A DNA stretch of 58,690 bases, filler included, from Sluysia triapertura (Eukaryota): assembly GCA_046118255.1 (NCBI GenBank). It is 4 parts of 4 records of this genome, joined end to end, with 100 filler letters (N's around TTAATTAATTAA, not from the genome) between each part and the next. Parts side by side here need not be neighbours in the genome. Positions count along the whole stretch, not along the records: positions 26,899 to 38,796 come from JBJNIA010159267.1; positions 38,897 to 58,690 come from JBJNIA010043239.1; 2 more parts are not named here. One strand, given 5' to 3'. Made by a program: the position numbers and the translations under genes. Below are positions 29,708 to 53,300 of the stretch, piece by piece. How positions within the stretch are numbered: position 1 is the stretch's first letter; each line of letters opens with the position of its first letter. The notes below the pieces were generated by a model, which was not told where the DNA came from, searched no databases, and worked only from the letters and a program-made list of their open reading frames with translations.

Positions 29708-30187
29708 TAACTTCTTCTTTTAATATACAATCATTCAATCAAAGATGAGTGCGAGCAGTTATAGATACCTGTTCGAATAACACTATTATTAATTATAATG
29801 TACTAAATGCTTTAGAAATTAATGTTACAACAAGCTGGTATACGACTATTTGCAGTGGATGGCTCACATATTCTATTTAATGGTATATTACAATGTCAAT
29901 TAACAATCCTAGATGTGGATTTATTTGTAACAATATTAGCTTGGAAAAGATGCCCGTATGATATTATATTAGGAATGGAAGTATTAATCAAATTAGAAAA
30001 TGTAGTAATACATGGAAGACTAGGATTTCTCAAAATACGTTTAGGTACTTATGTAGTATTACCACAATTAGTTTTACCTCCAATGCCAAGAGCAGTACAA
30101 CCAATACAACAGCAAAATTATCAAATTGCTCCATTAAATTCAAGAATACCACCATCACCAACTCCAAATTGGGAAAATCTTAATTGA
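29704..30187 (+). pseudogene. Retropepsin-like aspartic protease ORF downstream of integrase
   Basis: MITSSFNIQSFNQR*VRAVIDTCSNNTIINYNVL, then a frameshift into IRLFAVDGSHILFNG...CPYDIILGMEVL (DT(G>C)S, flap and ILG motifs), followed by a Pro/Gln-rich tail. Confidence 0.75.
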
Positions 30188-31189: not shown

Positions 31190-33423
31190 TTAACTTAACA
31201 AAAATGTAATTCATTCATATGATTCAGGTTTTTAAAAATAGGTCCATAAAGTCCACCATTGCAGTTATTATTGGCACATATGGGCTTGATTTCAAGATTC
31301 TGTTTAATATACGATGTATCCGATGACGAGTTATAATCATTACATTTAAGTGAGCAGGAATTGATTGCAGTCGAATGTCCGGCGATATTAGGACTACTGA
31401 ATCTGCGACCAAATTCTTTTGTACTCGACCTAAATCTTAATGATCAATTTAATTTAAACTCACTCTTTGTTGAACAATTGTTTACTAATTAAATTTGGAT
31501 GATTAACAAATAAAATAGTCGACATATTTATGGGAATTGTTTATTAACTGCCACAAAATTTGGCTCTAGATGTGCGTCGTTTCAAGCGTAATACAGTATC
31601 GTTAAAAGCGTTTAGTGTTTCAAAATTAGCAGTTTCTTTTAAGCGTAAGTTTAAACAATATAAACAATTTTGCATTAACTATCTGAATAAAAAAATTAAT
31701 GAAACAATAAATAGAAATACTTACAAAGATGTTTATGAAATTCGTAGTTTGAATAATTAAATGCTCTAATTTAATATGTTATATATTTGATTTTAAATGA
31801 GAACGTTTTGACCTTCGATATTTTCATTTCATTCTTAATTTCAGTCATTTGGAATTTGTTTATTTTATTAAATAAGTAAGGTATTGTTATTCAAGATTAT
31901 ACAATCAAGTATGCTATTATTCAGCGCTTATGTATTTTAATAATTTTAACGGTATCATGAATTATATTAGTGATTTAATGAACTCTAACCGCATACATTA
32001 ATGCTAATTGACGTCAAACTTTGATTTTTAAAAATTAAATTTTCATAGCGCTTTATTTTAATGCTTGAAGTTATTTTATACTTTCATAGATAATATAATA
32101 TAGACAAGTTATATTTTTTAACAATCACAAAGTACACTATACTGAGTGTGCAACTTAGTAATGGGGATAATCTACAATCATATTAATAAACTGTAATTAT
32201 CGTTAAATTGCAATATAAACTAAAATAGGCAATAATTAACTTTTTAATGTACATGTTTAACACTAAACGTACCGAGCGAGTTCAAATGAACCCTTTCATT
32301 GTAGTTTAAAATTTACCTTAAAATCGTGCATTCAATGATATTTCTTTCGCTCATTTCACTTTCACTTATGTCATCTGGTTTTTCAGTTTCTCGCATCCTT
32401 TTTTTTCTTAGCGTATCTTTTACGTATTGCGAGGAGTCATTTGACCCCATACGAAGTTTACGTATTTTCCGGCAAGTCTCCAACTGGAACCTTAATTTGA
32501 AACTCAGATATCTCATATGTGTGTTTGGTTTGAGAATGCTGTGGTTTTCTTAATGCTAAACCTAAGGCAAATAAAAAGGCAGGGTTCAGTTAAATACTTC
32601 AATTATCAGCTTTAATTTTGGACCCTTTGCCTGATTTACCTTCAGAAATTTTTGTTGCACTTCATCGATCTGCTTGAATCTTTTTTTGACTAAATAAAAA
32701 TTACAAATATATATAAAATTAAGACTCACAAAATGGCTCTTGAAGCTACGTGTGTTGTTTCTCTCTAAATTTGTAGTCGCTTCTTCATTGAGTGGATTCG
32801 CAGCATAATCATTGTATGATAAGTATACATTAGATGAATCTGGATTATGGTCTCTTATCTCGTGATTGTGGTCGTTACTTGTAGAAAAACTTTGATCTTC
32901 GAATTCAATGTATAGTGTCGCTAAATTTTCGGTATTACTCTCATCTTGTATAAAATTTTTAACTTTTTCATTTCTTAGAATTAATTTTTCAAAATCTCGT
33001 TGAAACTCATCGTAATCACTTTCTGATAACTCTTCAAGTTCATAAGATATTTCGTCAATAGAAATAGTATATCTTTTATTTGTTCTAGATGGATCTTCTT
33101 TAATATCAAATGTATCACTAAGATAATACTGGAAAAACTTGGGTTATTCCAACTTTTTTGAAGACTGAACGATTATTTTAATTCTTCTTCTGCAAAGGAT
33201 ATGTTATTTATATCATCTTCATTAAGGTTTTCGTTAGTATCAGCTGAAAAATTAAAATTACGTGAAAATTCACTCTTATCTAGAATTAATAGTATATATC
33301 GTTATTCGTTACAACTGGAAGTTTCGATGCATACGTCATATCAGGATATTCCATATCAAACATTGATTTGTTTCGAAAATTGATCAATTTAAATTTTAAT
33401 TTTGATAATGTTAATGAGCTCAT
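31190..33423 (-). pseudogene. Spliced gene or pseudogene of unknown function, acidic protein
   Basis: About 135 open codons from ~33140 to 32730 (YLSDTFDIKEDPSRTNKRY...RSFKSHF) ending at a GTGAGT donor with a ~39-nt intron. Further exon-like open segments lie at ~31680-31545 and ~31440-31190. The exon chain is not resolved. Confidence 0.4.
32257..32468. mobile_element. Degenerate piggyBac-like MITE
   Basis: TTAA-CACTAAACGTACCG...GTTCAAATGAACCC, with an imperfect inverted counterpart GGAGTCATTTGACCCC...GAAGTTTACGTATT. Confidence 0.4.
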
Positions 33424-33699
33424 TTGAATTTGTATTTCTTTTTCAACTCGATATCTATTGCCAAAGTAGCGTTTTTTTGTACATGAATAATTTAATTGTG
33501 ACAATTTTTGGTAATGTGTGTAGTATTCTAAACTGCCCAATATTGAGAATTATATGCACTTCGATTGGGCAATAACAAAAAATTAATTTTCGACAATCGG
33601 TGGTGTCATTCTAATGACAATTTTAAACAGCGTAAATAGCACTGATGACGGCAGCAACTAATTTAATACGATTTATTAAAAATAATTTGAATGTTTAAT

Positions 33700-33700
33700 T

Positions 33701-33746
<46 letters not shown>

Positions 33747-34579
33747 TAATAACAACAATAACATTGTTATTATTATTAATTAAAGATCGCATAAAATCTT
33801 GTTTAGAACTTCTACACGATCTTTTATGTTATGTTCTTTAACGTTCTAACATATAAATAAAAAGCAATAAAAATGATAACATGTGGTGAAAGAACAACGA
33901 TAATGAGGTATACTACGTATGGGTTATCGCTGTTGCTTCATATTTAAAATAATGAACTCTTTAAGGCTTTATTAAGTTTGTTTATAAATGTAAAAGAAAT
34001 GACTCGAGTTATACTTAAGACGAATTACTAAATTTTGTTAGGGTATGATTCTTGAATATGATAGTTTGAGATGGTTATTGAAAGGTTGTAGTTTGTTTAG
34101 TTTTAAACGACGATTACAAAATAAATCTTTGCGTATTTATATTGTTATTAAAAATAGATGTTGATGCTAAATATGTATAGCTGAAGTGGATTTAGCTTGG
34201 TGTAGTTGATTAAGGATTTTAATGTAAATGATTTATGTTTCTGAGGTAATTGTTAACGTTGTTGAATGGTGTTATTGTGTTTATGAATTGTGTATGATAT
34301 GCTGTGATTGTGACTTGTTTGTTAGAATATCTTAAAAGTGAGTGTTGTGAATTATTCGAGATTATTGTGCTGTGGAAAGTTAAAAGTGTTAGTCGAATTG
34401 TTAATGTGTGTGAATTAATGAGATGTTGTAAATATCGAGTATTGTTTATGGTGATTGTGTTGGTGTAATTCGATAGTGAAAAGTGATTGTTTTGAAAATT
34501 GAATTTTGGTGAAATATAACTTGTGAATATTAAATATGGTGTTTTGATAAATTCTGAGTTATGAGTGCTTGCCACTACA
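33700..34579 (-). repeat. Skewed cassette repeat, copy C
   Basis: Starts TGTAGTGGCAAG (34579), A/C-rich body, AAAAGATCGTGTA (33825-33813), then an (ATT/GTT)n tail. Confidence 0.65.
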
Positions 34580-34622
34580 CTGTTTGTGCAAAATGCATGT
34601 GGTACGACTTGAGCAACCTTAC

Positions 34623-35171
34623 CTATTGCTTGCAATAAGGAACGCAAGTCAGCTGCATGGTATATGGTCTATTTAAGAAATCAAAAGCGTAAGAGTGGAC
34701 AGTAAAAACTAAATGATCTTCTTCGTTAGCGGCAAAGGGTGGAACATGCGTGAAAGAAACATCGCTGTTCCAACGCTCCAAATTAACTGCGTTATCCTTA
34801 TAAAGATTTGGGATAAAAGACTGGTAATGGAATAATGAGGCAACACAAGTAGGCAATTCTGCAGCTTCGATTACAATGTAACTATTCCTATGAAGACTGG
34901 ATACATAGGATGAAGAGAAACTATGTATCCTCGTCAAATAAGGAGCCACAACTACATACAAAGACTTGATATAATCTGGAATATTTGTTAGACCATTTAA
35001 TAATATGTGAGATTTTTCAGGTGCGAAGGCGAAAATATGTGTGGCGAGGTTAAGATCCAATTCAGATTTCACGTTGTTATGAAAGAAAGCAGAAGTGATG
35101 TTCTCGTGACAAAACTTTCGATGTATACGTAGAAATTCTTTTGTTAGTTGAGGATCTTCGCTTCCATTATA
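34623..35171 (-). CDS. Unknown ~180-codon exon
   Basis: Open from an AG acceptor (35173-35172) to TAG at 34623, followed by a 43-nt GTAAGG...ACAG intron leading into the cassette repeat; higher GC than the flanks. Confidence 0.45.
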   Translation of the reverse strand, partial: YNGSEDPQLTKEFLRIHRKFCHENITSAFFHNNVKSELDLNLATHIFAFAPEKSHILLNGLTNIPDYIKSLYVVVAPYLTRIHSFSSSYVSSLHRNSYIVIEAAELPTCVASLFHYQSFIPNLYKDNAVNLERWNSDVSFTHVPPFAANEEDHLVFTVHSYAFDFLNRPYTMQLTCVPYCKQ

Positions 35172-35543
35172 CTAAAGTAGTAGGTGAATCATAAAATAAA
35201 ATTGTACAAAGCAAAACAAAACCGAACAAAACACACAAAAAAATAAGTAAGTTAATAATTTTTCTAATTACAAAACTTGTTTATATATTTGTATTATACG
35301 ATTTTACGAAAAGCTTATCGTCTTTTCTTTAAGAATGGGTTAGTCGGCTAGTAGTACCATTTTTGCTAACGTCTTGTATTTTATAATAAGTGTTTGAGTT
35401 GGCGTCTACGTCTGTTTCTTTTTTGAGATTTTGTCAAGTTCCGAATTATGATTGGAGGCGGCCTAACCAAGCCATTCTTACTAAGATTCTTATATCTGTA
35501 ACAAATTGATAAATATCAATACCTGGTTCCCCAGAAGAATCCG

Positions 35544-35730
35544 TTATGTATTTGACTGGAAAAGTGCGTTTTCGAAAAAAGATTTTCGAAATGTGCGTTT
35601 ATAATAGGTATCGCACTCAACAATAGTAGTCCTACATAATGGACAAGAAGGTAAAGGTGACAAAGAGGTGTTGTCTTGGCAAATATTTTCGAATTGACAT
35701 GAGGCAAATGGCACATGTTGAGTAAGACAT
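35544..35730 (-). pseudogene. RING-finger remnant with internal deletion
   Basis: ATG 35730 gives MSYSTCAICLMSI; another frame gives SLSPLPSCPLCRTTIV. The two RING ends are present and the central CxH...CxxC is missing. Confidence 0.6.
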
Positions 35731-35789
35731 GGTTTTTACTAAAAAAATAAAATATAATAAGATAATAATTAAGTAATACTAGTAATTTT

Positions 35790-36360
35790 AAAATTCATTT
35801 AAAACATTTTAACTCATAATTTCATAACATTATAATCATAATTACATTAGTTAACATTGTATAATTACCTTTTCAGAATGTATCAAAACCTTTTTCATAT
35901 TTTATTTCTTTCAAATCCACTGAAAAAACCATTTTCATACCTCAAAACATTTTAAAGTTACAATCTGTCAACATCCAAACTTTACTTTTATTCAAAACCA
36001 TCAATCTACATTTAAAAGTCATTCAAAACATTTTAATCCACAATTTCATAACATCAGAATTACAATTTACATATTAAACTATCTTAAAATCAATCCAAAA
36101 CATTTCAATTTCATTAACTTCGATGAAAAACATTAAATTAAATCAACTTTACATCACTAGCAAAACGGAATTTCTTTAACATCTTTAAGAAGACTTTTAC
36201 TTATATTTGAAAGAAGAATTTATTTAAGAAATGTTTATTCAAAAGAAATCTATTTTAAAATTTTAAAAAAGAGAAAGTTATAAAAGCAAAGATTTATGTG
36301 TTTATTTTGTTTTATTTATTATTATTTAATGGTATTATTTTTATTATCATCATCATTAAC
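35790..36360 (+). repeat. Skewed cassette repeat, copy D
   Basis: ATTCAAAACATTTTAA.CCACAATTTCATAACATCAGAATTACAATTTACA...AATCCAAAACATTTCAA...GAAAAACATTAAA shared with 48085-48235; internal duplication at ~35793 and ~36020; ATT-rich tail. Confidence 0.75.
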
Positions 36361-36998
36361 AAAATCAAGATTTTATTACTTCATGGCAACTACTTTAACA
36401 TAATTAAAATATATTCTCCTGTCACCATTTTTAATGCTTATTAACTAATTGTACAAGCATTCATTATAAAGCATCATGCATGCAGACACTAAATCAAATT
36501 TTTTTCTTGTAACTCGATTGGACACCCAATTAATTCTAACTTTATACATTTTGTCTTTTATGGTTTTAGACGTCCAATCACACACGAGTAATAACATACT
36601 TACAATTTCACAAATTAAAAAATTACAAAAATTGTGTTTTTAAAAATTTTATTGTAATGCAATCAAAAAACAAATTTTTCATGCTTATGTTAATTAAATC
36701 GGTTGTTTACAATATTATGATTATTGTATTCGAATAATAAATATAAAAGAAAGATTTGGTTTTCCATTGTATATAGTATTCAAATATGTTGATAGAAATA
36801 TAGTACTATAGAAATATAGAAATATAGATAATTTAAAAATTGGTTATATTGTTTATTCTGCTAACTCCAAGAAAAAAGAGATGGTAAATGCGAAGATAGA
36901 TGTGATGTAGTTCAATATTTTAAAGACCAGAATAATTATTTATTAAATATAAAATTTGTTAAGTCAAAGTTAACTACAAATGAAAATTTAGTTTTAGT

Positions 36999-37445
36999 AT
37001 GATTCATGAATTACTTAAGGTACAACCGAAAGTTATAAACTTTTTAAATTATGAAATTAATGAAATCTATGTTAGATTAATGCCAGTACAAAATATTAGT
37101 ACAAGAAGTTTGACTGAACGATTTCATATACCTCATTCTAAAGAATTTATTATAATTTGTAAAAGTAACACAAAAGCCATGTTATCAGGTTTTAATCATG
37201 TTTGTATTCATAGATTAATTATAACAAGTGATGATCAAGTTATAGAAATTTCTATTAATATATTTCTAGGGTTACACAAATTAGTTATTACAAATATAGA
37301 TGTTGATTCATTTGTCATGACAAATAAAATAGCATCATTAAAGACATACTTGTCGAATGATAGATCAAAAACTGGCTGTTTGAAGTTTTTCTACAATAAT
37401 GAAAATTACTATTATAAAAACAACCCAAACTGGGGAATGTTCTAG
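36999..37445 (+). CDS. Hypothetical 148-aa ORF, possibly part of a decayed gene extending to ~37700
   Basis: ORF track; protein-like reading continues past the stop; no family recognised. Confidence 0.3.
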   Translation: MIHELLKVQPKVINFLNYEINEIYVRLMPVQNISTRSLTERFHIPHSKEFIIICKSNTKAMLSGFNHVCIHRLIITSDDQVIEISINIFLGLHKLVITNIDVDSFVMTNKIASLKTYLSNDRSKTGCLKFFYNNENYYYKNNPNWGMF

Positions 37446-38274
37446 ATATAGGATGAACTGTCGATATTGCCACATATTCATGGTTACCCAACAAATTTTA
37501 ACGACCACTACGATAGAATCAAATCTTGTTTATCAACCTTGGCAAACATACCTGACCTGATATAGAGAACTCGTCTATTTGTGCTGTCAGCATTACTAAT
37601 TATGACTGCGTTAACGTGCCATCTGATTCTCTGACACAAGATGAGATTGAAGTATATACTAATTCAACTGAAATTTTATACTTGTACTTTTTAGTGATGT
37701 TTACAAATACATGGAATGGCATATTCAGAAATTGTCAAAACAATTTAATAGGAAATTTATGTAATAAAAATAAATAGATTTAGTTGTTGCTTTCACATTT
37801 TATTAGATTTTCGGAAATTCAAATTAAATTCGGTAATAAAACTTTTAATCAAAAGTAATTTCAATTGTAATTTTCATTTTCCTATAACATTTTTAACGAA
37901 AGTGTATTAATTTTATATTCAAAGACTTTTAATAAGCAAATTATTTTAATAAAAAATAAACTAAATAAATTCTTACCACAAAAATGGTGTCAGGAATTCA
38001 AAGAAACCCTGTTATTTTCTGAATATGACACGAAACCATGTTTTACAAAATTTACATAAATCTTTTAAATTATAAACATAATTTTCAACATAATATCGTA
38101 GAAAAATATGCAAACAATCATAATTATCTTTATAACAACAATTCTAATAATAGTAATATGCATGTTTTTCTCGATAAGTATACAAATAGAAATAAATTAT
38201 ACATATAAATATATGTAGAAATACTATTAAAACTATATTGTACTATTAAGACTATTTTGTACATAATAAACTTC

Positions 38275-38320
38275 TTAACCCCTTCCCAGTTTATGCCGTA
38301 TATATGCGGCACCAAAACAA
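38275..38320. mobile_element. piggyBac-like terminus
   Basis: TTAA-CCCCTTCCCAG followed by the near-palindrome TGCCGTATATATGCGGCA; no partner end found. Confidence 0.4.
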
Positions 38321-38479
38321 TCAAACGAAAAATAAGTTTAATCTTCGTAATATTTATAAAAAGACGTCGGAAATATCTTTATACACTCCAGTATCATAGG
38401 GAGCTCGCCTATGACAATATAAAACAAAAATAAATTCACAATAAGAGCAAGGTCATCCCTGTGAGGTTGTATGATAAAT

Positions 38480-38796
38480 ATTTATATCGCAAAGAATGAA
38501 TAGGTGGTTTATCTTGATCATTTTGTTTTAATTTAACTTTTAATCGTGATTTTTGTACTTTTCTATTCCTTAAACTATATTTTTCTTTTGGAGCAATTGA
38601 CATACACTACAAAAGTTTCAGAGTTAATTTTATTAGGATCCCTAACGAATATATTTATGTCGGTAATTTTAATCACTAAATACGAACCTTTAAATGGCTT
38701 ATGTAGTTTAGGTGAATGACCTGGTTTGGAAAGCGGATAATTTATAAGTATTTCGTCATCTACTTTAAAAGTATGTTCTTTGGCTGATTTGTCATA
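38480..38796 (-). mobile_element. Second Gypsy integrase C-terminus, related to the element at 26899-29707
   Basis: YDKSAKEHTFKVDDEILINYPLSKPGHSPKLHKPFKGSYLV..ETFVV..YSLRNR..LKVKL..DKP, collinear with YDKKANDHNFKVGYKVLVDYPIAKPGNSPKLHKPFKGLYEV..ETFVV..YNLRDR..LKVKL..DKP. Confidence 0.9.
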
Positions 38797-38896
38797 NNNN
38801 NNNNNNNNNNNNNNNNNNNNNNNNNNNNNNNNNNNNNNNNTTAATTAATTAANNNNNNNNNNNNNNNNNNNNNNNNNNNNNNNNNNNNNNNNNNNN
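38797..38896. other. Assembly linker
   Basis: N44-TTAATTAATTAA-N44. Confidence 0.97.
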
Positions 38897-39063
38897 TTTG
38901 AGTTGTTGAAATGAATGTAAGAGTTTATTGAGTTGGGAATGTTAAGATATGGATTAATTTATTGTTGGGTGTAATTTGGTGAGATGTAAAGATTGTAGTT
39001 GTGAGTATTGTTATTTTATGTGATGATTTTTACTTATTTTAAGTTAAGGGGTTGGCCACTACA
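38897..39063 (-). repeat. Skewed cassette repeat, copy E (5' part, cut by the gap)
   Basis: TGTAGTGGCCAACCCCTTAACTTAAAAT followed by an A/C-rich body. Confidence 0.6.
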
Positions 39064-39942
39064 TTCGTAATCTAACAATAAAAATAATAAAAATAAACAT
39101 AGTTAAATTATTATAAAAAATTTTTAAAATCAATATTGTTCATTATTGTTGAAATATATTTATGTGTATATATTTTATAGGATTTTGTCAAATTGAAGGA
39201 ATGATATGATGATAAATTTGTATCAAGCATCAAGTCTGAGAATGAGTTATTCAGAGATACTATTAAAAAAATCTTCTTTTTCTTTCAAATTTTTACAAAT
39301 TGAAAGTAGTCAACATTATGTTACAAGATTTATGGTACAATTGACAACCGTAGGTGAAATAGTATCACATCATCGTTTATTGAAATTGTTGAAAATTTTG
39401 GAAGATGTTTTAGTGTATACATAAAAACATGTAATTTTATTATTAACTATTTACTTGTTTTATTGTTTCTTAATTTTTATAAATAATAAAAAGACAAATT
39501 TTGTTATAGTTTTAAATTTGTTATTTGTTACAGGCCTTACGCCTATTTTGTTATACATAATTGAATTAACGTTTAGACGTTTTTGTTTTATTAATGTTGT
39601 AAATAATCTTCAAAAAAAAGTAAAATTAAATTACAAAAATAATAAATTTCGTAAATTCAAGTATACATTACCCTTCACACACCAACAAACCGTAAAAATT
39701 TGGCATAAATCACCATTATAATGATTTAACCAAGCTTATAATGTACCTAAACTAGCCAATTTTTATATTGGTTGTAAGTTCTCATACAAAAACACCTAAG
39801 CAATTTTAGCCAATTTAATCCATATACGTTCCTTAAAATTAAAACCAAATTAAGTATTCACAAATTTATTTGTATAAATACAGATATTTATATGATGAAA
39901 AACACGTTAAAATAAATTGTATGACAAATATGACTTTTTTAA

Positions 39943-40896
39943 TTAAGTAGAATCTGTTGATTTTTCATTCGAAATAACTCTCAATACTTTTTTATGGTGC
40001 TCTTTACTCTTATAGTGCATTCTCATACAAAATAACAATGATTCAGTAATTATTAATACAAAATTTATTGTAGAACAAATAAATCCTGTTAACATAAATC
40101 CAAATATTATTTTAAAATAAATGTTAATATGGAGTGATTGTTTCAATAATTTTAAAATCCTTGAATAACAACTCGGATGACATTTGTATGGTTTATAAGT
40201 TTCATTTTTATTTCCTGTATAGACACAGCAAATATTTGGTATTTTGTATTTTATAGTCATTTCTGTCCAACTTTTTTTACCACAGCAATTTAATCCTAAT
40301 GATAATGCAGCAATACTATCGGAAATTGTATTGTTACTGAAAATTTTATTAATACCACATATGTAACATTCATATGCTGTAAAATTGTAATACAAGGCAT
40401 CAACTATCCGCACAGAACTATAATTTGGTACATCAGTAAATACGATTACTGTAAAAATGAAATAAAACGACAAATATATTGAAAAAATAAATAAAAGAAG
40501 AAACAGAATTATTTGAAATTTACCTATAACCATTGTAATCATTAAAATGTTAAATATTAATAAACAAGCAATAATTCCAATAGTAATGTAAATTTCATAT
40601 CTTGTTTTCAAGTCCACTTTTGAAATTATTTGATGCATTGTTGTTATAATATTCGATAAATGTTCATTATCAATAAACTTAGAAAAAGTAAAACCAGTAG
40701 TGTTTAAATTAAATCTATTAAAGCCAACCTCTGAAACCAATGTATCATGTATATTATAAGATAAAAATAGCAAAATCGCAATTGCAGATATTTCAGATAA
40801 CATTATTATTATTAAAATTAAAAAAATAATTGTATTAATCCATCTACGCTGATATGGAAGTAAGTGTTTTTTTTGCTTCCAAGCTAAAATCGGCAT
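39943..40896 (-). CDS. Divergent tetraspanin, intronless, 317 aa
   Basis: Four hydrophobic segments; the large loop has LNCCG..SW, IPNICC and a Cys before TM4. Confidence 0.8.
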   Translation of the reverse strand: MPILAWKQKKHLLPYQRRWINTIIFLILIIIMLSEISAIAILLFLSYNIHDTLVSEVGFNRFNLNTTGFTFSKFIDNEHLSNIITTMHQIISKVDLKTRYEIYITIGIIACLLIFNILMITMVIGKFQIILFLLLFIFSIYLSFYFIFTVIVFTDVPNYSSVRIVDALYYNFTAYECYICGINKIFSNNTISDSIAALSLGLNCCGKKSWTEMTIKYKIPNICCVYTGNKNETYKPYKCHPSCYSRILKLLKQSLHINIYFKIIFGFMLTGFICSTINFVLIITESLLFCMRMHYKSKEHHKKVLRVISNEKSTDST

Positions 40897-41765
40897 ATAC
40901 TTACTTTTGTAAACAATTATTATTATTGACTTATTATTTTAATAAATTAATATTACACGTTCATTATATTAAAATTTATCATTTGAAAATTTTGTATGTA
41001 GTTATTGTGGATCTTAACGAGAATATTATTCCTTAGTAATGCTACTAACCTTGTTTAATTTAAGACAATTTTGAGCTTGGAAAGTAAGTTGTTTTAAATT
41101 TAAATTTGTTTTCATTAATGCAAATAAAAGAATACAATATTGAATATTTTAATAAGTTTGGAACCAGAGAAATGTATGAAAGTCTTAACATTAATAAGTG
41201 AAGAAGATTAATAGAAGTCTAGAATTCTTAGCCAATTAATAAACCTTTCTTTCCTTGATTTGCGATATTTATTGAAGTTAATTGAGCAACGGCATAATTT
41301 GATTTAAGTCTTTCGAGTTTGTTGTAAATGTAGCAATTTTATTTTCTTTTAAGAATATCGATAAAACGTGTATTGATATTTGACGATCAATTTTGTTGAA
41401 TTTAGATCAAAACAACTAAATATTTGCTTTCATATATTAAAATTTTCAAGCATTTATTAATGTTTCGACAATGTTTAAATGCGTTTTTGAGCAAACCTAT
41501 TTACAGAGGAAGTTCATTTTTAATCGTAGTAATGCCGGATTTCAACTTTCAATTTGTAATTACATAATTAATCATTTAATAACGTCAACCTCTATTTTTG
41601 CATACATATATTATAAAAAGCAACAATATAGAAAATAACTAGAACGTTATTAATAAATATAAGTCCTTGTTCACAATAAAAATACCCAATAATTTGTTGG
41701 TGCAAATTTAGAACACAAAAATTTGTTTTATTGATTGCATTAAGGTCGAACAATCAGATAATCAA

Positions 41766-42842
41766 TTACACTAGCATAAATACATTGCTTTTATCATCAT
41801 CTAAATTTACAGTTTTATTTGTTTTTGAAACACTTTGTGGAGTATTTTTATTTTTATAATCAATTCCTTTTATTTTACTAAACCATGATTGTACAATTAC
41901 TCGAAAAGTTGATCTAAATTGTTCAGACATTATATAATAAACAATAATATTGGATGGGTACGATATGATAACTAGTAAATCACAAATCGGAATCAAATAT
42001 TCATAAAAAATCGGTTCCGTATCTGGAAAAAGCGATTTTGTTATTATGTAAGATACAATTGTGGCACCACTAGGTATTTCAACTATTAAAAATATAATTA
42101 AAATAATTGTTAACATTTTTGAAATGGAATTTGATTGAACTTCAGCCTTTTTGTTTGATTGAGTTGGAGTAGGATTTAGCAGACGTTGTCTGTTTCTATT
42201 AGTTTTTCCTAATGCTTTTATTAATAATATCGTTAAAATTGATAATACTGTACATGGTATTACATTTAAAAATATGACTCTAGATGTATAGTAAATTCCT
42301 GTGATTTGAAAGTTAAAGAAACTACAACGAATAACTGATGTATTAGATGAGTTAGTTTTTTCGTAGTGGAATGTATAAAATGTAAATGAATGCGATATAG
42401 CACTGAAGACATAGACTAGATATATGCATTTATTAGAAGTGTCGTTTGTCCAAATATGAGGTATTTTTATTGGAGAAGTTATATAAAGATATCTTTGTAA
42501 TGCTAATATGACAGTTAAATAGATGGCGGCTGTATGAAAAATTGTAGGACAAACAATTGTGAGATAGTGAACTGCGTAGGCTTTGATAACTGAATTTGGT
42601 TTACGAAATTCCGAACTTAATTTAGCTAAATATATTGGTAAAGGAATTGCACCATTTAATAGATTAGTTACGGCTAATCCTAGTAGAACTATATTAGTTG
42701 GAGATATCATATGACGTTTCGAAAGTACTAGGCAGATAAGGATATTAGTAAACATAGTTGTTATTATAGCAATGGGTGATAATTTACTTTGAATTGTATA
42801 TTCGATATCGGTTTGAGTAAAGTTATTCGATAAGCAAGTCAT
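41766..42842 (-). CDS. Class A peptide GPCR, sex-peptide/MIP-receptor-like, intronless, 358 aa
   Basis: Seven TM segments; VLSKRHMISPTNIVL, PTIFHTAAIYLTVILALQRYLYI, FLIVEIP and YPSNIIVYYIMSEQFRSTF parallel SPR-family motifs. Confidence 0.9.
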   Translation of the reverse strand: MTCLSNNFTQTDIEYTIQSKLSPIAIITTMFTNILICLVLSKRHMISPTNIVLLGLAVTNLLNGAIPLPIYLAKLSSEFRKPNSVIKAYAVHYLTIVCPTIFHTAAIYLTVILALQRYLYITSPIKIPHIWTNDTSNKCIYLVYVFSAISHSFTFYTFHYEKTNSSNTSVIRCSFFNFQITGIYYTSRVIFLNVIPCTVLSILTILLIKALGKTNRNRQRLLNPTPTQSNKKAEVQSNSISKMLTIILIIFLIVEIPSGATIVSYIITKSLFPDTEPIFYEYLIPICDLLVIISYPSNIIVYYIMSEQFRSTFRVIVQSWFSKIKGIDYKNKNTPQSVSKTNKTVNLDDDKSNVFMLV

Positions 42843-43199
42843 TCTACAAAATAAATGGAGTAATAATAGAAATGATTGTTTTAAAAATAATTTCTTTTAA
42901 ACAAATATATCATTAAAACATTTGAAAACATTAAAGTTGGAAAATTTTTATGTAATAATATATAAAATCTAATAAATTTTCGGAAAAAAAGAAATAAGAT
43001 ATAAAACAAACAAATTTTGAAAATTATTTATTATAGTAACTCTCGTTGCTTTTAGCAAAATTTCACCAGACTTGTTCTAACTCCATAAATTCATTTATGG
43101 AAAAGAATTTTTAATAATTAAATCAATATTTTAATAAGCTAACTCTTCAATTTTTATTTGAATTTACACTTCTTTTATAATCAATAAATTAATTTTTGG

Positions 43200-43330
43200 G
43201 CAACTGTCTTTAGTTTAGAGAGCCTGGTTCCACATTTTTCGTTGATAGCGTGCTTACTTCAGTTAATATATAAATTATCTGCTTTGCAGCTCTTTCTACA
43301 TAATGATAAGTTAGAGTTCTGCGTTACATG
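43200..43330 (-). mobile_element. Possible Merlin/IS1016-like transposase remnant
   Basis: Frameshifted YVERA... and INENVEPGS..DS fragments only. Confidence 0.3.
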
Positions 43331-43411
43331 TTAAAAATAATAACTCGATAATTATTCATATTAAATATAGAATTTATTGATTTTACTATTTTATTTTAGA
43401 CCTCATAAAAT

Positions 43412-43480
43412 TGATGGCCGGGATTCGAAACTATTATCTCTGGTTGTGCAGTTCGATGCTTCAAACATTAACCCAACTCA
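43412..43480 (-). pseudogene. tRNA-derived pseudogene or SINE head (tRNA-Cys-like)
   Basis: A-box-like TGGGTTAATGTTTGAAGC, CTGCACA loop and B-box-like TTCGAATCCCGGC; the stems pair poorly. Confidence 0.4.
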
Positions 43481-44099
43481 ATTTATTTTCATTGTAGTTA
43501 ATTGTACAATTTTTTAATTGGCACTTTTTATATATAGAAGTAAATATTTATATTTAAAATTAAACTATTAATACACCAAGCTGCACTTAACAACAAGAAA
43601 AAAAGCAAATTATAAATAAATACAAATATACTCATAGGAACAATACGTAATAACTAATTTAAATCTACTTTAATTTAAATTATAATACAGTTATCGTGCA
43701 TACTATGCACAAATTGATAAATTTCCAATATAGAAGAATCACGATAATTAAATCAAAATAGATTGTTCTTTTACATTTGTCTGCAACAAATGTACTTTAC
43801 ACAGTATTTTTCAATAATATTATAATAATAAGAATTTTATGAATTCTTCTGAATTAATTAATTTAATTAATTTCTCTATATAAGTAAATTCTATTATATG
43901 GCTAATATTTTTTATAGTTAAAATTCTATAATGGATTTTGACGTTTATTATCGTGATAATATGACCAATTTTGCCTATACACAATTTTCTTTTCTTCTCT
44001 ATTACAATTTATAATTTAATGGTTATTTAAGTAATGTCATTATTTAATGGTTATGTGTTGTTAAATTGCCATCACAATCCTTTAAAATCTAAAATTTGC

Positions 44100-44212
44100 A
44101 AAAAAGAAAATTATTTCTAAAATAGAAAATTCTCAAATATTCTGGAATTTTCGAGAGCCTTCTTTAATTGTGATTGGCTGATGACTACTGTATATACTAT
44201 ATACTATATATA
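44100..44212 (+). promoter_or_regulatory. HSE-CCAAT-TATA promoter block, repeat copy 2
   Basis: 5-bp phased GAA44125, TTC44130, TTC44140, GAA44145, TTC44150, GAG44155, TTC44160; ATTGG 44173-44177; TATATA from 44191. Confidence 0.65.
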
Positions 44213-45055
44213 CCGCCTTTTCCTTCTCTTTTCACTACATCCCAACAGTTATACATCCAACTATTACATACTCTTTAAACATCAAATTATATTCACAATT
44301 CCACAACATCTAAATCACAACTATATTTAACATTACCAATTTACATTAACCAATTCATCAGAAACACTACTTGACATTCATAATAACCCCTTATTTTATA
44401 CTGCACTTTAACAATTAATACCTAATAATTAATAATATTCATTCAATAGTTTATTTGCTCAAACCAAATCATAAGCACAAACTTGCAACATATAAACCAT
44501 AATTACATTTAGTACCATTTCATACCACCTTAAATATACAAAGAGTTGTATTGCAATTGTTCTTAGACTTATTAATTCACAATTTTCTCAGTAAACTCTT
44601 TTATCCACGAATTTCAATACCTAAACCCTATTTTTAATTTTAAACTTCAATTAATACTTAAGAACTTATTCTAACATCCTTTATTTCATTTTCGATTCAA
44701 TTCATTTACCATATCTTTAAAAGTTAAATATATTTATCTGATCCTTTAAAACAATTCTTACTCAGTAATTTAGCTTCAAATACATTTTCAACATGATAAA
44801 AACTTTCAAGAATTCAAGTTAAATCGAATATGGTTTTAAAAATTCAATCTTATGAAGTTAAACAACAACTCCAGCATTATACACCATCAAATTATTTAAT
44901 CTTTTTCGTCTCTTCATATGTAAGAATAATATACTAAAGAATGAAAGAAAAGATCATGTATTAATCTTCTAAAAAGGAAAGTTTATGCATATTTTATTCT
45001 TTGTTTTGATAATAATAATAACAATATTATTGTCGTTGTTATTATTATCAATACC
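44213..45055 (+). repeat. Skewed cassette repeat, copy G
   Basis: G-poor, A/C/T-rich body, AAAAGATCATGTA 44948-44960, then an AAT/ATT/GTT tail. Confidence 0.65.
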
Positions 45056-45399
45056 TAAATTAACAAATATTAAAATTTAGTAATCTATATCTGTTGTCAC
45101 CACCATCACCAGTGTTGACGTTTTTAATCATGAATGTCAGTGTCTCGCCTACATCTAATTTTACACTTCACCTTTTCATTGTGATTTCAACTAGCTACCC
45201 AATCAGAGCAAATATAATTCCTCATTTTTGCTAGAAAGCTCTGATTGGATTACCAACAGAACTATAGATAAAAAATTATTACAAAAAAAGATAAGTAATA
45301 AAAATTAGGTACACGCTAAAATAATCGGATAAGTTTTATTGCAATATACAGAATTAATCTATTACTTTAAAGAATTGTAATTGTTTCTTTTACTTTATT

Positions 45400-46817
45400 A
45401 TGAATAATGATCCTGAATCATCGGATGTAGACGAATTAATGGAACAACAAGAGAGAACAAATCCAAACATAAAATATGCTCTGATATTTATGCTAATGAA
45501 AATTACAATCAAAATAAATTAGAATTTTCTGCTTTACCGAATAAACGAATTTACAGTAAAACAAGTAATTCATCGTTTTCTCAACAGTGCGAAAATAAAT
45601 TGACAAATAATTAAAAGTATCTTAGATCCTTAAAAACATATAGTTCTCCAAATTTCGAATACCATGAAGCTTTGGAAACATTTAACGAGTCTACGAGTAA
45701 AGTGTCAGACTATTGTTATGCGATGTAGATTAAAGTCTATTAATCGAAATCCTAATTCAAATCACTGTTACGCGATGTGTTTTAGATTGGAATCTGTTCC
45801 ATGTGGATTAGTTAAGATGCATGATTACAAGTCATCTAATAATTATAAAACACATGATGTAGAACCTATTGTTACGAAGTCCCAATGGAAAATAAGTGCG
45901 ATGAAATAAGAAATGTGAGGCAATTACCAAAATGAATACAAAATTCCATGAATCTTATCAACAGTTCTATGTGATTGGTTGTATTTTGGATCCAATTTAC
46001 AGTTATCATATCAATCACATGATAGGGCTTTTTAATTTACGTAAATGTATTGAACATACGACTCGTTTACATCAGCCGAATGATGACGAAAATAATGCTA
46101 CCGACCAAAAGGTCTATTTAACCATGAAATTAACAAGATTTTTAGTAATAAATAGCGTAACACAACAACCTTTGAATTGTACGTTTAAAACTGATAGGAC
46201 TTTGCAGCAAACAACGGAAGAATTCAATGTTACTGAAGGTGAATTTATTAGGAATCAGTTTAATTCGATGAAGAAGCTTTTACAAAACAGTTACACATTA
46301 AAATTTCATTATATTTACTTTGAATATCACTTTTATCTTATATTTTCTTTAGAATATTTTTTCAGTACGTGTTCCAGCGACGAACTTACGGATGCGGTGC
46401 CAAAACTACTACGCACAAACATCATCCAAAACATAACTTTAGAATTTAATGTTGAAAATAAAATCTGTGTATTACCATTTGTATTCTTCAATAAAATAAG
46501 CTTTAATTTATTAATAATTTACAAACGTGTATTTATTAAACCTTTTAATAAGCAATCGAGAATAATCGTTAACGATATAAAAATTAAGTCAAACATACAA
46601 ATTTTATATGATTTCCAACTTATTATTATTCGATATTATAAGTCTCTTATTAAGTCTCTTATTAATAATTACATTCGGGTGCAATTATTATAGTAAAAAT
46701 TTTGAATATTCACCCTTAGATAAATTTAAGGACAACATAAATAAGCATTTGGCATTCAGAGATGTCAAAACTTCAACTTGGCGTAAACAATATCACCAAA
46801 TTAAAACTCCAAAATAA
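45400..46817 (+). pseudogene. Decayed coding region of unknown family, including the 253-aa ORF at 45932-46693
   Basis: ATG at 45400 (MNNDPESSDVDELMEQQ) and several consecutive plus-strand ORFs broken by stops and frameshifts. Confidence 0.35.
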
Positions 46818-47894
46818 ATTTACTTGTTTGTTAATATGAGTTTACAATTTAAATTAATTTTAAAAGTATGTAATTTATTTGTTTGCCTATGTAAGGGTTA
46901 TGTGAATTTGTTAGGTTAAAAAAGGCGACTATTAAAAATTAAGAAATCGATTTTAATTGGTTTTATGTTTCTTTAGAAAAGCTTTACCAAAATGATTTAA
47001 TTAAAATTTGCATAACAATGAATTACAATAAGGTTATAAAAATTAACATGAAACACTTTAAAGTAAGATATTCAGTGTAATAATTAATAATATTAAATAT
47101 TCAATTAATTACGATGATAAAAAATAATAAAATGTGATAATTCAAATAATAATGTTAATAATATTATTATTAGGATAATAATTTTTGCCTCAATAATTAA
47201 TTTCGTAATAAAATTTTACTAAAAATATATGAGCTCAAATTTTTATAAATTAAATTTTTAAAATTAAATCTAACTATTACATTTTGAATATCGAAGAATA
47301 AAAATGTATCGTTTTTCAGGATTATCGCTTGCCGATTAAATTGTAATATATTATAAAAATAACTTCAAGAATTAACTTTTAGTTTCAGATTATAACTTTT
47401 GGTTAATGATTAATGAAGTGACTATCAATGTGTGATTGTACAAAATAACTTGTAAATTTTATATGATAACCATGTACAATGTTTTATGGTAACGCTATTT
47501 ATATACCCTTTATCAAAATTAAGGTCATTTGACCTTATGACCAACTATATGTAGTAAGCTGATGAATTAGTTAATTAATTAGTCATAATAATAGTACATT
47601 GAAGCTAAAATAAAGTGATGATTAATAATACTCTTGAAAAATGTGATAATAATAATAATAAAATAGCTATAATATAATAATGTTAATCAAAATAGTAAAA
47701 ATACTTTAATATTATAATTTCTAATAATAATAATATTAATAATAATAATTATTATTATTATTTAAAAATAAATTATATTAAAATATTGAATTATTTATAT
47801 TTTACATGAATTACAAAAATTACAACAGTAAATTGCACTATTACAGCATGATTACACTGTTATAGCATGATTTTACACTATTTACAGACTTCAT

Positions 47895-48481
47895 TGTGGT
47901 GGTCAATCTTTAACTTAAAATTCAAAATAATTATTTCATTTGTAATATCACATTTACTAACATTTTATATTTTACTTTCTCAGATTAATTAAAACCTTCT
48001 TACATTTCAAAACAGTTAAATTCATAACCTTATAACATCAAAATTATACTTACATTCAAATCATTAATGTACATTTCAAATTTCATTCAAAACATTTTTA
48101 ACTCATAATTTCATAACATTAGAATCACAATTTACAACTTAAACTATCAAATATAAATTTAAAACTAATCCAAAACATTTCAAGTTCACAATCCTTCAAC
48201 ACTCAATCTTATGTATCATCGAAAAACATTAAAATCACATTCCAAAACCAGTTTAAAAGAGTTTAATCAAAAAGAACTTCATTTAAATTAATTTTGAGTA
48301 AAGAATTTTAAAAGAATTATATTTATGTAATTTAAGATATTTTTATATTTTATAAAAAAGATCATGTAAAGATTTAAAAGAATAAAATTGATGTATTTTA
48401 TATATTATTATTATTATTATTAATATTATTATTATTATTATTAACATTATTATTATTAACATTATTACCATTATTATAATT
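47895..48481 (+). repeat. Skewed cassette repeat, copy F
   Basis: Starts TGTGGTGGTCAATCTTTAACTTAAAAT, body homologous to copy D, AAAAGATCATGTA 48356-48368, (ATT)n tail. Confidence 0.75.
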
Positions 48482-48834
48482 ACGGATTACATAAAACCTT
48501 GATACAGTAAACTGCTTATATATAAACTGCTTGAATTTTTCTTCTAAGTTTTATTAAATCATTATTTAGATTATTAATTTAACATAAGTTATATAATTAA
48601 TTTAACATAAGTTATATAATTATTTCATTTGTAATGATATATAATTTCTTTTTGAAAGATTATATTAACCTTTAAATTATATTTTGCCAGTCCTATTTTA
48701 AATGAGGGCTTAAAATAACCGATAAATAAATTACAAATATTAATAATTGCAGCAAACGAATAGCTAATAGATTAGCATAAGTGATATAAATTGATTAAAC
48801 AACATCTTTGACTTTTGTATTCAAAATCCTATAG

Positions 48835-49371
48835 ACAAACCCTTGTACTACAGGCGAACTCATTGAATTTCTAAAATCAATTTATGTAGGTTCTAGTAGG
48901 AAGCACAACACATCAAAAGTCGAACTTTGTAAACATCTTCGATGCTTTTTTCTTAATGATCATAATTGTTTTCTTGAGGATCAGCCGAACTGTATTGAGA
49001 AGTGTAAGAGAAACAAAAGTCGGACAATTTTAAATTTATTGAAATGGAGAATTGTGTCGTTTGCCGAGATGCTATGTTACGAACTTTTAATTACGTCATG
49101 AAGAATTATTGAAAACTTCTACAAGGCTAACATAGCTACCTCTGAATTTGACAATAAACAAGTGATAAGATTTCAATATCATACTTGTGACGAATACATT
49201 TTATGCTTATTGTGTGGCAGAAGATATTTGCGAAACTGCACTAAACACTTGCATCATGTGTTTATAGGAACATGCGACAGTAAACTGCATAAAAGATCCA
49301 ACAACTTACCTTGTAACAATCATACTATACTAACCTATAACAGTTGTTGTATGCGAAAACTTCCCTTATAA
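48835..49371 (+). pseudogene. Cys/His-rich degenerate coding segment
   Basis: Near-continuous frame (TNPCTTGELIEFL...CKHLRCFF...; HTCDEYILCLLCGRRYLRNCTKHLHH) with one stop, and CVVC in an alternate frame. Confidence 0.35.
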
Positions 49372-50128
49372 CAACTAGTCAACACTTTTGTATAAAACAA
49401 TTTAAATTTCTTAATACAATAATTTGGAATTAAATTTTAAAATATAAAATATTGATTACTTAAATTATAATAAAACTATAACAGAGAAATATTTAACCTT
49501 TCAAAAATTCCACGACATTAATTTCAAATTTATAACGTGAAAATGAAAAAATAATTAGGAATGGTTACCAGCAGGAAAAAAATATTGTTGAAAAACTGTA
49601 TCTTACTTATACAAGAAATAAAATTCATAATTATCATTAGTAATTCCTTCAATTACAACATATTTTCATAACTAGGCTTATTAAATGGTTATCAAACTAA
49701 GATATGTGTCGACAAATTCGTTAGTATTGTCAGTAGTACTAGCAACAGTGTTATTAGGTACTGTTATTTGTTCTTATTATTTAAAAATTAATTATATTAC
49801 CTATTATTTAATTTATTTCATTCCTGTTTTAACGACTTAGTTTCAACTTTAGTTGCGGTATCATAATCCTTATTAAGCACAATTCTTAAATTTATCATTT
49901 TATATAAATTTAAAACAAGCACCTAACTATCAATGATAAAACATTACAAACTCATTTAATCTGTATAACAATTTTTAAACAACTCATAATAAATCAATTA
50001 AGTAAAATCAATAATTTTAGTTTTACCTTAAATATTAACAGTAATCATTAAAAATCATTAACAGTATTCATTCTTATTAAAAATGTAAAAATTGAGCACA
50101 AAATGAAAAGCAAGTGAAATGAACTCAC

Positions 50129-50326
50129 TTCTAAAACCGAATATTCCGGGTCAAGCCCATAATCTTTGATAGGCCGTTCTTCTTGAAGAAACTTACCAGC
50201 TTTACCTGCTGTGGCAGGTTGGAAAAGACCAAAATTATTAACATCATGCAAACGACCACATAAGCTATCGATTATAGTTCGTTTAATAAATGCAACTGAT
50301 TCAGAATTTGGAATACAAATCAATTT
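50129..50326 (-). CDS. SHANK: SHANK-family N-terminal (SPN, ubiquitin-like) domain exon
   Basis: AG/GTGAGT-bounded 198-nt phase-0 exon; LHDVNNFGLFQPATAGKAGKFLQEERPIKDY vs SHANK LQDALNYGLFQPPSRGRAGKFLDEERLLQEY. Other exons were not located. Confidence 0.85.
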
Positions 50327-53300
50327 CTAAAATATGCAAAATAATTTGATATAATTATCATATTAAATTATTTTTTGATCGTAAATAAAATAAATTTTTT
50401 ATAATATGTACAATTAATCCTTACATAACTGAATTAAGAATTATTATTGGCGTCAAAAAATACACAAACAACACTTATAACAAATATGTCAACAGACTCA
50501 TTTAAATTAAAGAAATAAAGAAAAATATTATTGATTTCGCATCATGTGTTACTTACAGTCCATAAAATAACAATTCAATATAGCATCAAAATGTAGCCAA
50601 TGGTTAAAATTGATTTCAATTGCATTATTCAAAACATAAATGCTAATATTATATTTCGTATTAAGCGCAAATACTTTACACTAAATATGCAACGAAATCC
50701 ATTTTGTCTCTAAATATTTCAAGTCATTGTTAACTTAACAGAATTAACTTTCTGATTACCCAAAAAAGTATGTATGCATTGCATACCATGCAAGTCCATT
50801 GGACCCATAAAATAAAAAAGTTAATTTTTTCATTTAAATAAGATTTATTTAATACATCAATACAATTTTCATGAAACATATTACTAAAAGATAACTAGTA
50901 AACGGAAAGTTAATAATGCTGTTTCATTTAATGAAAACTTTTATTACTTAATAATTTCTTATTTTTGATCAGTCAACTAATAAAAATAATAAAATTAACA
51001 ATTTAACATAATAAAAATTAACTTTTAGGAAAAAATTAATTAATAATTGAAATGTTGTAATTTAATTATTAACTAACGATTACTATTATTGTTAGAATTG
51101 AAATAAAAATAAAATTGTATAAAATTTTGTAAATATTATTTGTTATAAAATGAAATTTTAAAATTTTGTAAAAAATTAAATATTTCTAGAAATTTTAAAA
51201 TAAAAAAATTGTAAATAAAATATTAATTAATTAATAAAAATTAATTCAATTTATTTAATAGATTTTTTGATAATGAATTTTCCATTTGACTAATAAGGTT
51301 TGTAAAATCTTTCCATTTATGTAATGGATTCTAAAATAAAAAATAATTTATTTCTTAAAATGACTAAAAGATTCCAATGGATTTATTAGTATAAATAACA
51401 CAAACGAAAAGTATATAAAAACTGGAAAAACGTATTTGGTTCAATTAATTTGGGAAATCTTTTTAGTAGCTGGTCTAGAGATTGTATACATTTTTGGAAA
51501 TTCATTGATATTCAATTTTTGGACAGATTATTTAGACATTCGTTGCTGATTTGGAAATTCTATATTTTTTATTTTACGACATATGTTAAAAACCCATACG
51601 TTTTTGTTAAATAAGTTCACCTTACTTATTTAAGGAGAAACTGAACTTAAAATTTTTGGCTTTGGTTTAAGCCAGTTATAAATCATTATAAAAAGGCTTT
51701 AGAAATTCATTAGAATTAAAATTTTATATATTTATATTTTCTCTGATATATTGTTTATTATTATTAATTTATTTACCTTGGTTCATATATGTTGATTTAT
51801 TTTATATATGTTCTATAATACATAAAATAAAACGTACATATTTGTTCATAGGGTATAAATCTCCCAAACAATTAAAAGATATAATTTTCTTAGATATTTT
51901 GTTATAATAAACATTTATTTTAAGAATAGGTTATTCATTAGTGTAAATAATTGAATTAAAAGCAACGAAATGAATCAAATAAGTAGATGTCTATTTAAGA
52001 TATCTTTACTGTTAAGGAAATCATAAACAAGGATTAACCTAATTGTAAACACTGAAGAAAGTTTAAAATGTAGTTCATATTTATTTATTTATGCAGAAAA
52101 TTTATGGGTACGTTTTTTTACTAAAAATCATAAATCGTATACTATAGACGAATGCGTACAAAATAATTCTGCGTACAGGTACTTTAATCACAAGATAAAA
52201 GTAATGATAAAATATAAACGCAAAATTATTATTAACAATAATAATTATATTGTAACATAATATATCATTTTATGTTGTACTAATATCTACTAAAAGTGCT
52301 TTGCAAATTAAATCATTCATTTTAATATTTCTAAAATGGAAAGAACTTTGTCTTCATAATCTTCCAGTGATTTCTGACGGCTCGTTGATTTTTAAAAGTG
52401 GTATATAACCAATTACTTATTATTACTGTTTAAATTTTTATATCTTAAAAACATTCATTTGGTTTCTGTATCTTTTAACATTTCCACGAGATACTGATGA
52501 CTTCCACAAAGTACGCATTTATAGATTACAGTCGCTATTTTGAATTCTTCTCTAGCTTTTATTGATAACCAGTCACTTGTTTACTTGAATTTTTATATTT
52601 TCTGATTAGTTCAATGCTGCTTGAAATTATTACAATCGATATTATTAGTTATTGTTATCAATTAATAAATCCACGTTAATGAATTTCTAATATCGATATT
52701 CTCTAAATGGTATTTACACTTTTTGAATTCTATTCTAAATATTCTATATTCCCTATTTTTATTTCACATCTATCATTTTACCAACTACAACTTTGTTTCA
52801 TTTATTTAATATCGTAGCCGCTTTATTGCCGACATTTCATTGATTTTCGAATATGTATTTTCAAACCATTTTATTAATTCAATTATTCGTTAATATTTCT
52901 CTACTATTTATTTAAAATTCAGTTATATTGATAGATTTATAACAATATGACAAGGATACAAGTTAATAATATTACTGACTTTAATAGCTCACTATGTGAC
53001 ATTGGCTTAATATTTTAACGCTATGCTTTTTGTTAGAAAGTTACAAATCTCACCTATTTAAAGAAATTATTGTGTAACATAATCATAATAATAATAAAAC
53101 GTTTATAAATAACCATATTATAATAACTTTCTAATATATTTTATTTAAATCAATTAAATTAAATAATAATTATTTACAAATTGTATTTTTAAAATTTAAT
53201 TATTTATTATCAAAATGGCGTTTTACATTTCTATTGTTTAATCAACAAAAATTTTATCTACATTAAAATATTTAATAAATTATTCATTACTTATAAAATT

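Follow-up and report, generated by a model that had tools for sequence, protein, structure and literature searches.

In a 58,690-nt stretch of the genome of Sluysia triapertura (GCA_046118255.1; hereafter the window, a pack of 4 stretches), we analysed a repeat present in five copies, named C, D, E, G and F. Each is a long terminal repeat (LTR) of the same high-copy Ty3/gypsy retrotransposon family, an assignment that we hold to be practically certain. Taking all the evidence together, we consider it probable that this is a gypsy retrotransposon with a first reading frame borne by the LTR, which crosses the primer-binding site (PBS), likely continues into a ubiquitin-like domain (Ubl) ending in Gly-Gly and into the capsid, and is probably cut by a deubiquitinase. 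The source assembly (619 Mb, AT-rich, 263,945 contigs) is an animal genome with short contigs. L-numbers denote loci outside the window, in the same genome or in metagenome relatives.

The edges of the repeat are those of an LTR. Copies begin abruptly at TGTRGTGRYCAAY, and the sequences flanking this 5′ edge are unrelated. At the other side, as judged by visual reading, CCACA or CCAAA closes 17 of the 23 D-type loci that extend so far; G-type copies close with CCAAA, and unrelated DNA follows; the LTR ends are TG...CA, with many ...AA instead of ...CA. Bracketed LTRs measure 2.1-3.4 kb, and solo LTRs 2.1-2.7 kb. Exact 5-bp target site duplications (TSDs) were present in 5 of the 43 copies with enough downstream DNA (permuted mean 0.25, maximum 3), all five of D-type and one of them low-complexity. 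A pattern made of the LTR end and the PBS matched the genome 82 times, including behind copy D of the window (37985), and a pattern made of the polypurine tract (PPT, mostly AGGGGGCTGA) and the LTR start matched 90 times (overlaps counted); both reversed controls gave 0. The PBS of the family, TGGTGTCAGGAG, is complementary to the T-arm, acceptor and CCA of a tRNA, and we take it to be of the tRNA-Leu type. No tRNA genes were found by ARAGORN or Rfam in the loci scanned. In L290 and L271, the tRNA complementarity of the primer site past the LTR end extends over ~30 nt and through the T-arm, not over 18 nt or fewer.

The internal region completes the assignment. The integrase end of L279 is carried by 24 of 31 distinct PPT junctions, and LTRs of all five types (C, D, E, F and G) lie behind it. 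In L279 the order is LTR-PBS-linker-gag-PR-RT-RH-IN-PPT-LTR (PR, protease; RT, reverse transcriptase; RH, RNase H; IN, integrase), with an internal region of ~6 kb, and the order gag-PR-RT-RH-IN was met in both L279 and L297 (RT, RNase H and integrase by Pfam, the protease motif by eye). L279 is the sole element seen with both LTRs (643-3470 and 9463 onward). Gag presents a DUF7041 match and two CX2HX9CX3C (CHCC) motifs (L297, from translation), a twin motif that is also found in the relatives. The earlier note had seen nothing that would place the repeat in a known class and had proposed looking for TSDs and TG..CA ends; both were found, together with PBS, PPT and pol, and the class can be assigned. 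A Ginger or terminal-inverted-repeat transposon, suggested by the TGT start, was dropped given the PBS, the PPT and the RT. Besides, L280, L281 and L286 keep gag-PR and the integrase end with similar junctions and lack RT and RNase H, and could be a non-autonomous subfamily.

The five copies lie where they had first been reported, C and D on one contig and E, G and F on another. Their start, TGTRGTGG, was located at 34579 (-), 39063 (-) and 47895 (+), and AAAAGATCRTGTA is common to C, G and F (33825 (-), 44948 and 48356). The skewed body also stood: eight bracketed LTRs are G-poor, with a GC skew of -0.29 to -0.38 in the 5′ half. Regarding pairwise similarity, D and F have a 505-nt body block in common (69% identity, z 28 against shuffles) and C and G are weakly alike (z 4.7), while the other 8 of 10 pairs were no better than shuffles. 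The unity of the family is drawn from the common ends and the common internal region. Genome searches with C, F and G gave 45-68 matches each at ~70-87% identity, from 40 candidates scored out of 2850-5002, and these figures are not copy numbers. The cassette had been thought to end at the ATT tract, but homology continues beyond it, through two palindromes and then for 1.2-2 kb, taking in the open reading frames (ORFs) after C, D and G. Thus, of the different ORFs described after each tailed copy, those of C, D and G are real but lie within the LTR, and the one at 48835 lies outside copy F. Two further copies proposed at ~1000-2850 and ~11400-12400 proved not to belong to the family: 2865-2127 is another repeat and 11470-12400 was unmatched.

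Copy C (32590..34579, -) keeps its 5′ end, has lost internal sequence near 33539 and lacks the 3′ end, being cut at ~32590 where other copies go on; it holds a remnant of the LTR-borne frame (32589..33549, -), within which the ATG at 33423 is internal. C-type LTRs sit behind the integrase end and PPT of the family, as in L004 (83% over 902 nt). Copy D is a 5′ LTR, truncated at its own 5′ side (35780..37980, +), that ends in TTACCACA. Its frame (36984..37980, +) is broken, contains an Unkempt-like CCCH remnant (37417-37480, +) and has its last 38 codons in frame with the primer site. Behind D lie the PBS TGGTGTCAGGA, which reads W-C-Q-E in the LTR frame, and ~300 nt of internal region (37985..38275, +). 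Copy E (38897..39063, -) is the first 167 nt of an LTR, the contig end cutting the rest, and in L281 and L287 the PPT of the family is followed by E-like starts (matches of 58-67 nt). Copy F (47895..48481, +) is the 5′ part of an LTR and stops after the ATT tract; F-type LTRs stand behind the family PPT in L223. Copy G (44211..46813, +) is a solo LTR that lacks its first ~50 nt and ends in CTCCAAA. Its frame (45400..46813, +) runs in overlapping pieces from the ATG at 45400, common to other copies, to the LTR end. Two palindromes precede the ORF in most subfamilies, in G at 45099-45140 and 45199-45248 (+); the second is an inverted pair of CCAATCAG motifs ~40 nt apart, likely a promoter, with an RNA hairpin as the alternative.

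The frame inside the LTR is kept open. Across 44 regions, each made of the 1200 nt that follow the CCAAT pair (some of which may enter the flanks), the longest sense frame had a median of 180 aa, against 64 for antisense and 56 for Markov sequences, and frames of at least 150 aa were found in 32 of 44 sense regions, in 1 antisense region and in 0% of the Markov sequences. Moreover, open sense frames cover 85-100% of the 3′ half in the eight bracketed LTRs. When counting codon variants shared by three or more copies, which are events not independent of each other, no stop was found in frame among 643 (0/336 for G, 0/230 for C and 0/77), against 119 of 1306 (9%) out of frame and 36 of 888 among private variants. 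At 21 of 22 D ends and 13 of 15 G ends, the frame remains open as far as the end of the LTR. At the PBS, the frame reading WCQE was the longest upstream in 24 of 37 junctions (median 25 codons vs 9/9) and downstream in 22 of 41 (36 vs 11/12). The protein sequence behaves differently from the frame: amino-acid constraint was not above the control, with pN/pS (nonsynonymous to synonymous polymorphism) like that of the U3 controls, and the LTR ORFs show no third-position bias (66/58/76, 41/47/50, 16/13/13), while that of the integrase is strong (11/3/44, 23/13/69). By blastp, the ORF families of C, D and G are unrelated to one another. The LTR frame is under selection against stops, not against amino-acid change.

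We think it very likely that a single continuous ORF runs from the LTR through the PBS and the Ubl into Gag. In this genome, open pieces tile the stretch from PBS to Gag, with breaks private to single copies, and the four frame switches in the unique part of L297/L257 are all spanned by an open frame in the other copy. A metagenome scan added 80 loci; among the 13 examined, the closest share with our family the purine tract, the TGTGG start, the type of primer and the pair of CHCC fingers. The relative L308 has an LTR of 396 nt and one 496-aa frame from within the LTR via the PBS to the fingers, and in both L308 and L302 the ubiquitin-bearing ORF begins inside the LTR. Relatives L308, L320, L302, L304 and L307 were assembled as permuted units (IN-PPT-LTR-PBS-gag) with intact ORFs.

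A ubiquitin fold ending in Gly-Gly just before the capsid is clear in the relatives and degenerate in this genome. Of nine ORFs from relatives given to Pfam, five showed ubiquitin ahead of the capsid, above cut-off in L308 (6.6e-24) and L302 (1.6e-21) and below it in L300, L320 and L299; neither of the two own-genome pieces did. A profile built from the relatives detected the Ubl in the own-genome loci L280, L297 and L257 (E about 1e-4), and hhalign also recognised the own-genome Ubl (94%). Its model is a beta-grasp fold (pLDDT 86) that Foldseek placed with ubiquitin, ISG15 and NEDD8 (TM about 0.8). In one pair, the codon bias of the Ubl was 8/7/24 vs 17/13/19 in the linker. A search for homologues of the Gag ORF among longer proteins found none. 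Across the relatives, the ubiquitin unit varies from near-canonical to barely recognisable. By analogy with known ubiquitin fusions, host deubiquitinases would, with reasonable probability, cut at the Gly-Gly and free Gag.

Several LTR frames contain host-like fragments. Pfam matched 4 of the 12 ORFs from LTR regions in a batch of 18, and 8 in a batch of 107, one of which is a nested integrase. A piece resembling the formin GTPase-binding domain (E 7.6e-7) occurs at 11 distinct G-type LTR sites, including L103, where it lies between start and PBS; a Ras-family small GTPase piece (E 4.4e-7) in 3 F-type copies; and a Ufd2 core piece (E 2.6e-20) in 2. D-type copies, the TSD-flanked L208 among them, hold an Unkempt-like CCCH finger that scores below cut-off. 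LysRS-like (L219) and NAP-like (L220) pieces were found at one site each and were not counted as shown cargo. The matches are colinear, degenerate and partial, with internal deletions. The earlier suggestion of a gene-capturing mobile element family is thus borne out, as host-like fragments lie inside the repeat in several independent copies. By comparison with known cases of capture, it is quite likely that this cargo derives from host mRNA by template switching.

These observations fit together in a proposed cycle. Transcription would start just after the inverted CCAAT pair, and translation would run from the LTR through the cargo, the PBS, a low-complexity linker and the Ubl into Gag, with a host deubiquitinase cutting after the Gly-Gly as it does with pestivirus ubiquitin insertions. 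Since the leader would be clipped off, it would only need to stay in frame: a stop upstream would kill Gag, while amino-acid changes and in-frame insertions would be cheap. A kept frame, a free sequence and tolerated cargo match this expected cost of stops versus changes before Gly-Gly. Template switching onto host mRNAs would add in-frame pieces inside the LTR, which would grow from ~0.4 kb, as in the relative L308, to 2.1-3.4 kb, with cargo that differs per subfamily. Solo LTRs such as G, resembling a "promoter cassette plus orphan ORF", would next arise in large numbers by LTR-LTR recombination, and nesting and deletion would account for the truncated C, D and F.

Several points weigh against this account. 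Regarding the element itself, 38 of the 43 copies lack an exact TSD, only D-type copies bearing one, and L279 may be a recombinant (by LTR swapping) or an assembly chimera, because its two LTRs are only ~70% alike and of different subfamilies. Regarding the frame, no copy in this genome keeps the whole ORF intact, and its continuity is pieced together from decayed copies; the shared variants behind the count of zero stops are not independent; at 13 of 37 junctions upstream and 19 of 41 downstream, the longest frame is not that of the PBS; and AATAAA near the LTR ends allows a short LTR-only mRNA. The own-genome Ubl ends in LLGG or LPGG, not LRGG, and has no Pfam match alone; its aligned rows were chosen by GG and the fold prediction used true ubiquitin-like rows, so neither is independent. 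As for the cargo, 99 of the 107 LTR ORF pieces have no Pfam match, the formin and Unkempt scores are under the Pfam cut-off (29.3/30.1 and 25.1/31.1), phmmer found no homologue of the formin-like piece among longer proteins or in the PDB, and the parent host genes were not located.

The LTR ORF could instead be a separate accessory gene, with promoter, ORF and poly(A) signal in the LTR and with Gag starting at its own ATG near the Ubl, an alternative that we consider unlikely. It would agree with the AATAAA that many LTRs carry within their final 80 nt (of 23, 10 and 8 in the two terminal bins and 0-5 in the rest), with a Met shortly before the Ubl in L297, and with the lack of an intact fusion in this genome. 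However, there is no shared stop at the LTR end, where the frame enters the PBS and goes further; the PBS-to-Gag stretch is tiled by open pieces with copy-private breaks; and relatives have a single ORF from the LTR to the CHCC fingers. A separate LTR gene and the fusion may coexist through alternative polyadenylation.

It is less probable still that the leader is a working product, with released formin, small GTPase, Ufd2 and CCCH pieces acting as decoys against host defence under positive selection. In its favour, several of the cargo types have links to signalling or ubiquitin pathways, maintenance of the frame is strict, and the cited part of PMC6431247 proposes that apoptosis- and ubiquitin-related extras interfere with the host in the planarian element Burro. 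Against decoys, the fragments are partial, degenerate and internally deleted, most cargo is unrecognisable, and amino-acid constraint does not exceed that of non-coding controls.

We give very little credit to ordinary solo LTRs whose ORFs arise by chance or belong to neighbouring genes. The window's C, D and G ORFs have no Pfam match, the G ORF gave two repeat-like matches among 1.8 billion proteins, and third-position bias is absent. Nevertheless, the long frames found in sense only and the zero shared stops largely refute chance, and TSDs bracket the ORF itself, as in L208. The earlier note had also foreseen that the repeat might be simply an LTR with ORFs unrelated to its boundaries; the first half of this description fits, but the ORFs are tied to the LTR boundaries. 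Finally, a non-LTR cassette or a shared terminal exon or 3′UTR spliced to unrelated genes, as the tail-like ATT tract and the differing C, D and G ORFs without a blastp link had suggested, is refuted and scarcely credible: an AG within 10 nt upstream, the supposed acceptor, is not enriched (29 of 81 starts, control rate 0.38), the ORFs lie 3′ of the tract inside the repeat and are common to many copies per subfamily, and the repeat passes the tract to TG...CA/AA ends with TSD, PBS and PPT.

Among known elements, the LTR-borne fusion proposed here is closest in its fingers to the CsRn1 clade (CsRn1, PwRn1, AgCR), described in the cited part of PMC2582038 with a CX2HX9CX3C Gag finger, a tRNA-Trp PBS, a 4-bp TSD and, in PwRn1, an LTR of 381 bp. 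Our family resembles it in finger type, PR-RT-RH-IN order, TG-start LTRs and the absence of a visible env, and differs in having two CHCC fingers, a PBS that is not of the tRNA-Trp type, a 5-bp TSD, LTRs of 2.1-3.4 kb, an ORF open inside the LTR and a Ubl before the capsid. The nearest proteins were 24 at 45-56% identity. Judged by sequence, the family is CsRn1-like in its Gag fingers, and we do not file it in the CsRn1 clade because primer type, TSD length and LTR size differ.

Burro/GYPSM1 (PMC6431247, in the part cited) is a giant planarian gypsy element with an internal region of up to 25 kb, an N-terminal CCHC Gag, and extras and env downstream of Gag. Both are high-copy gypsy elements of AT-rich animals with long LTRs, host-like extra domains and a ubiquitin- or SUMO-like (Ubi/SUMO-like) domain, which in Burro is in ORF1 and downstream of Gag and here precedes the capsid. 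Unlike Burro, the present family has an internal region of ~6 kb, CHCC fingers and extras upstream of Gag inside the LTR, and L279 gave no env match. A Burro LTR was itself ruled out as an identity by internal length, Gag finger type and domain order.

In yeast Ty1, only a short GAG stretch precedes the PBS, and Ty1 is not known to carry a ubiquitin unit or cargo there. Its PBS lies within the GAG reading frame (PMC4974528, in the part cited), as here, but Ty1 belongs to the copia superfamily. Uptake of host mRNA pieces, probably by template switching, is described in the cited parts of work on LTR-mediated retroposition (Tan et al., PMC5131818) and on plant additional ORFs (PMC7264820). There, the captured piece replaces internal ORFs or lies internally, whereas here it is within the LTR, with pol kept, in frame with Gag and spread by solo LTRs. 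In cytopathic pestiviruses, ubiquitin is inserted in the polyprotein and host hydrolases cut it to give an exact downstream N-terminus (PMC8310069, in the part cited). Those are sporadic insertions in an RNA virus with cleavage shown, whereas here the unit is fixed and conserved in a retrotransposon clade and cleavage is predicted. In the literature searched, Repbase not included, we found no description of a ubiquitin-Gag fusion that carries captured cargo and whose translation begins inside the LTR. The single parts (gypsy LTRs, PBS in GAG, Ubi/SUMO-like domain, internal capture) are known, and their combination would appear to be new to that literature.

The window contains other repeats and genes. 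A separate multicopy RING-finger repeat (34624..35790, -) abuts C and D outside the LTR family, and the RING remnant noted earlier upstream of some copies belongs to it; the NSD-type zinc finger reported along with that remnant was not found. The RING repeat (also L389-L399) is at least 2.5 kb long, with a RING Pfam match (3.2e-9) in L397. It also holds a stretch of basic residues and another, unrecognised ORF of 250 aa, has transmembrane-like ORFs upstream, and seems to belong to a different retro- or virus-like element. A high-copy ~740-nt repeat starting with TGTTAGGTTG lies at 2127-2865 (-) and 44076-44200 (+), and a piece of it occupies the place of the first 50 nt of copy G. A short diverged repeat (48640-48910) is followed by a Cys/His-rich ORF pair (48835-49368, +) that matched neither Pfam nor the genome; for the 48835 ORF, no genome match beyond 48910 turned up among 40 scored candidates. 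A decayed gypsy pol (26931-30187, +) and a related integrase-end fragment (38501-38796, -) showed no DNA match to loci of the LTR family. Host genes at 39943-42896 (-), 50051-57000 (-) and 7438-7851 (-) comprise a single-exon Srw-type G-protein-coupled receptor, talin exons and an SRI domain, together with a four-helix membrane ORF without Pfam match and a DHFR-like fragment (54819-55130) among the talin exons.

In the cases of capture known from LTR elements, host pieces enter the internal region and often replace element genes; here, the LTR is the capture site and pol is kept. Capture in the LTR means that every insertion makes two copies of the cargo, which also persists in solo LTRs. The family provides a natural example of a reading frame selected to stay open while its protein sequence is not under selection, and a candidate ubiquitin-based route of Gag maturation. 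It also gives one explanation for many "promoter plus orphan ORF" units that confuse the annotation of this genome. We lean slightly towards a broader view, in which the LTR would be a gene-capture slot whose ubiquitin cut site lets host mRNA fragments join in frame, and solo LTRs would be promoter-plus-ORF units, thousands of which may seed chimeric proto-genes.

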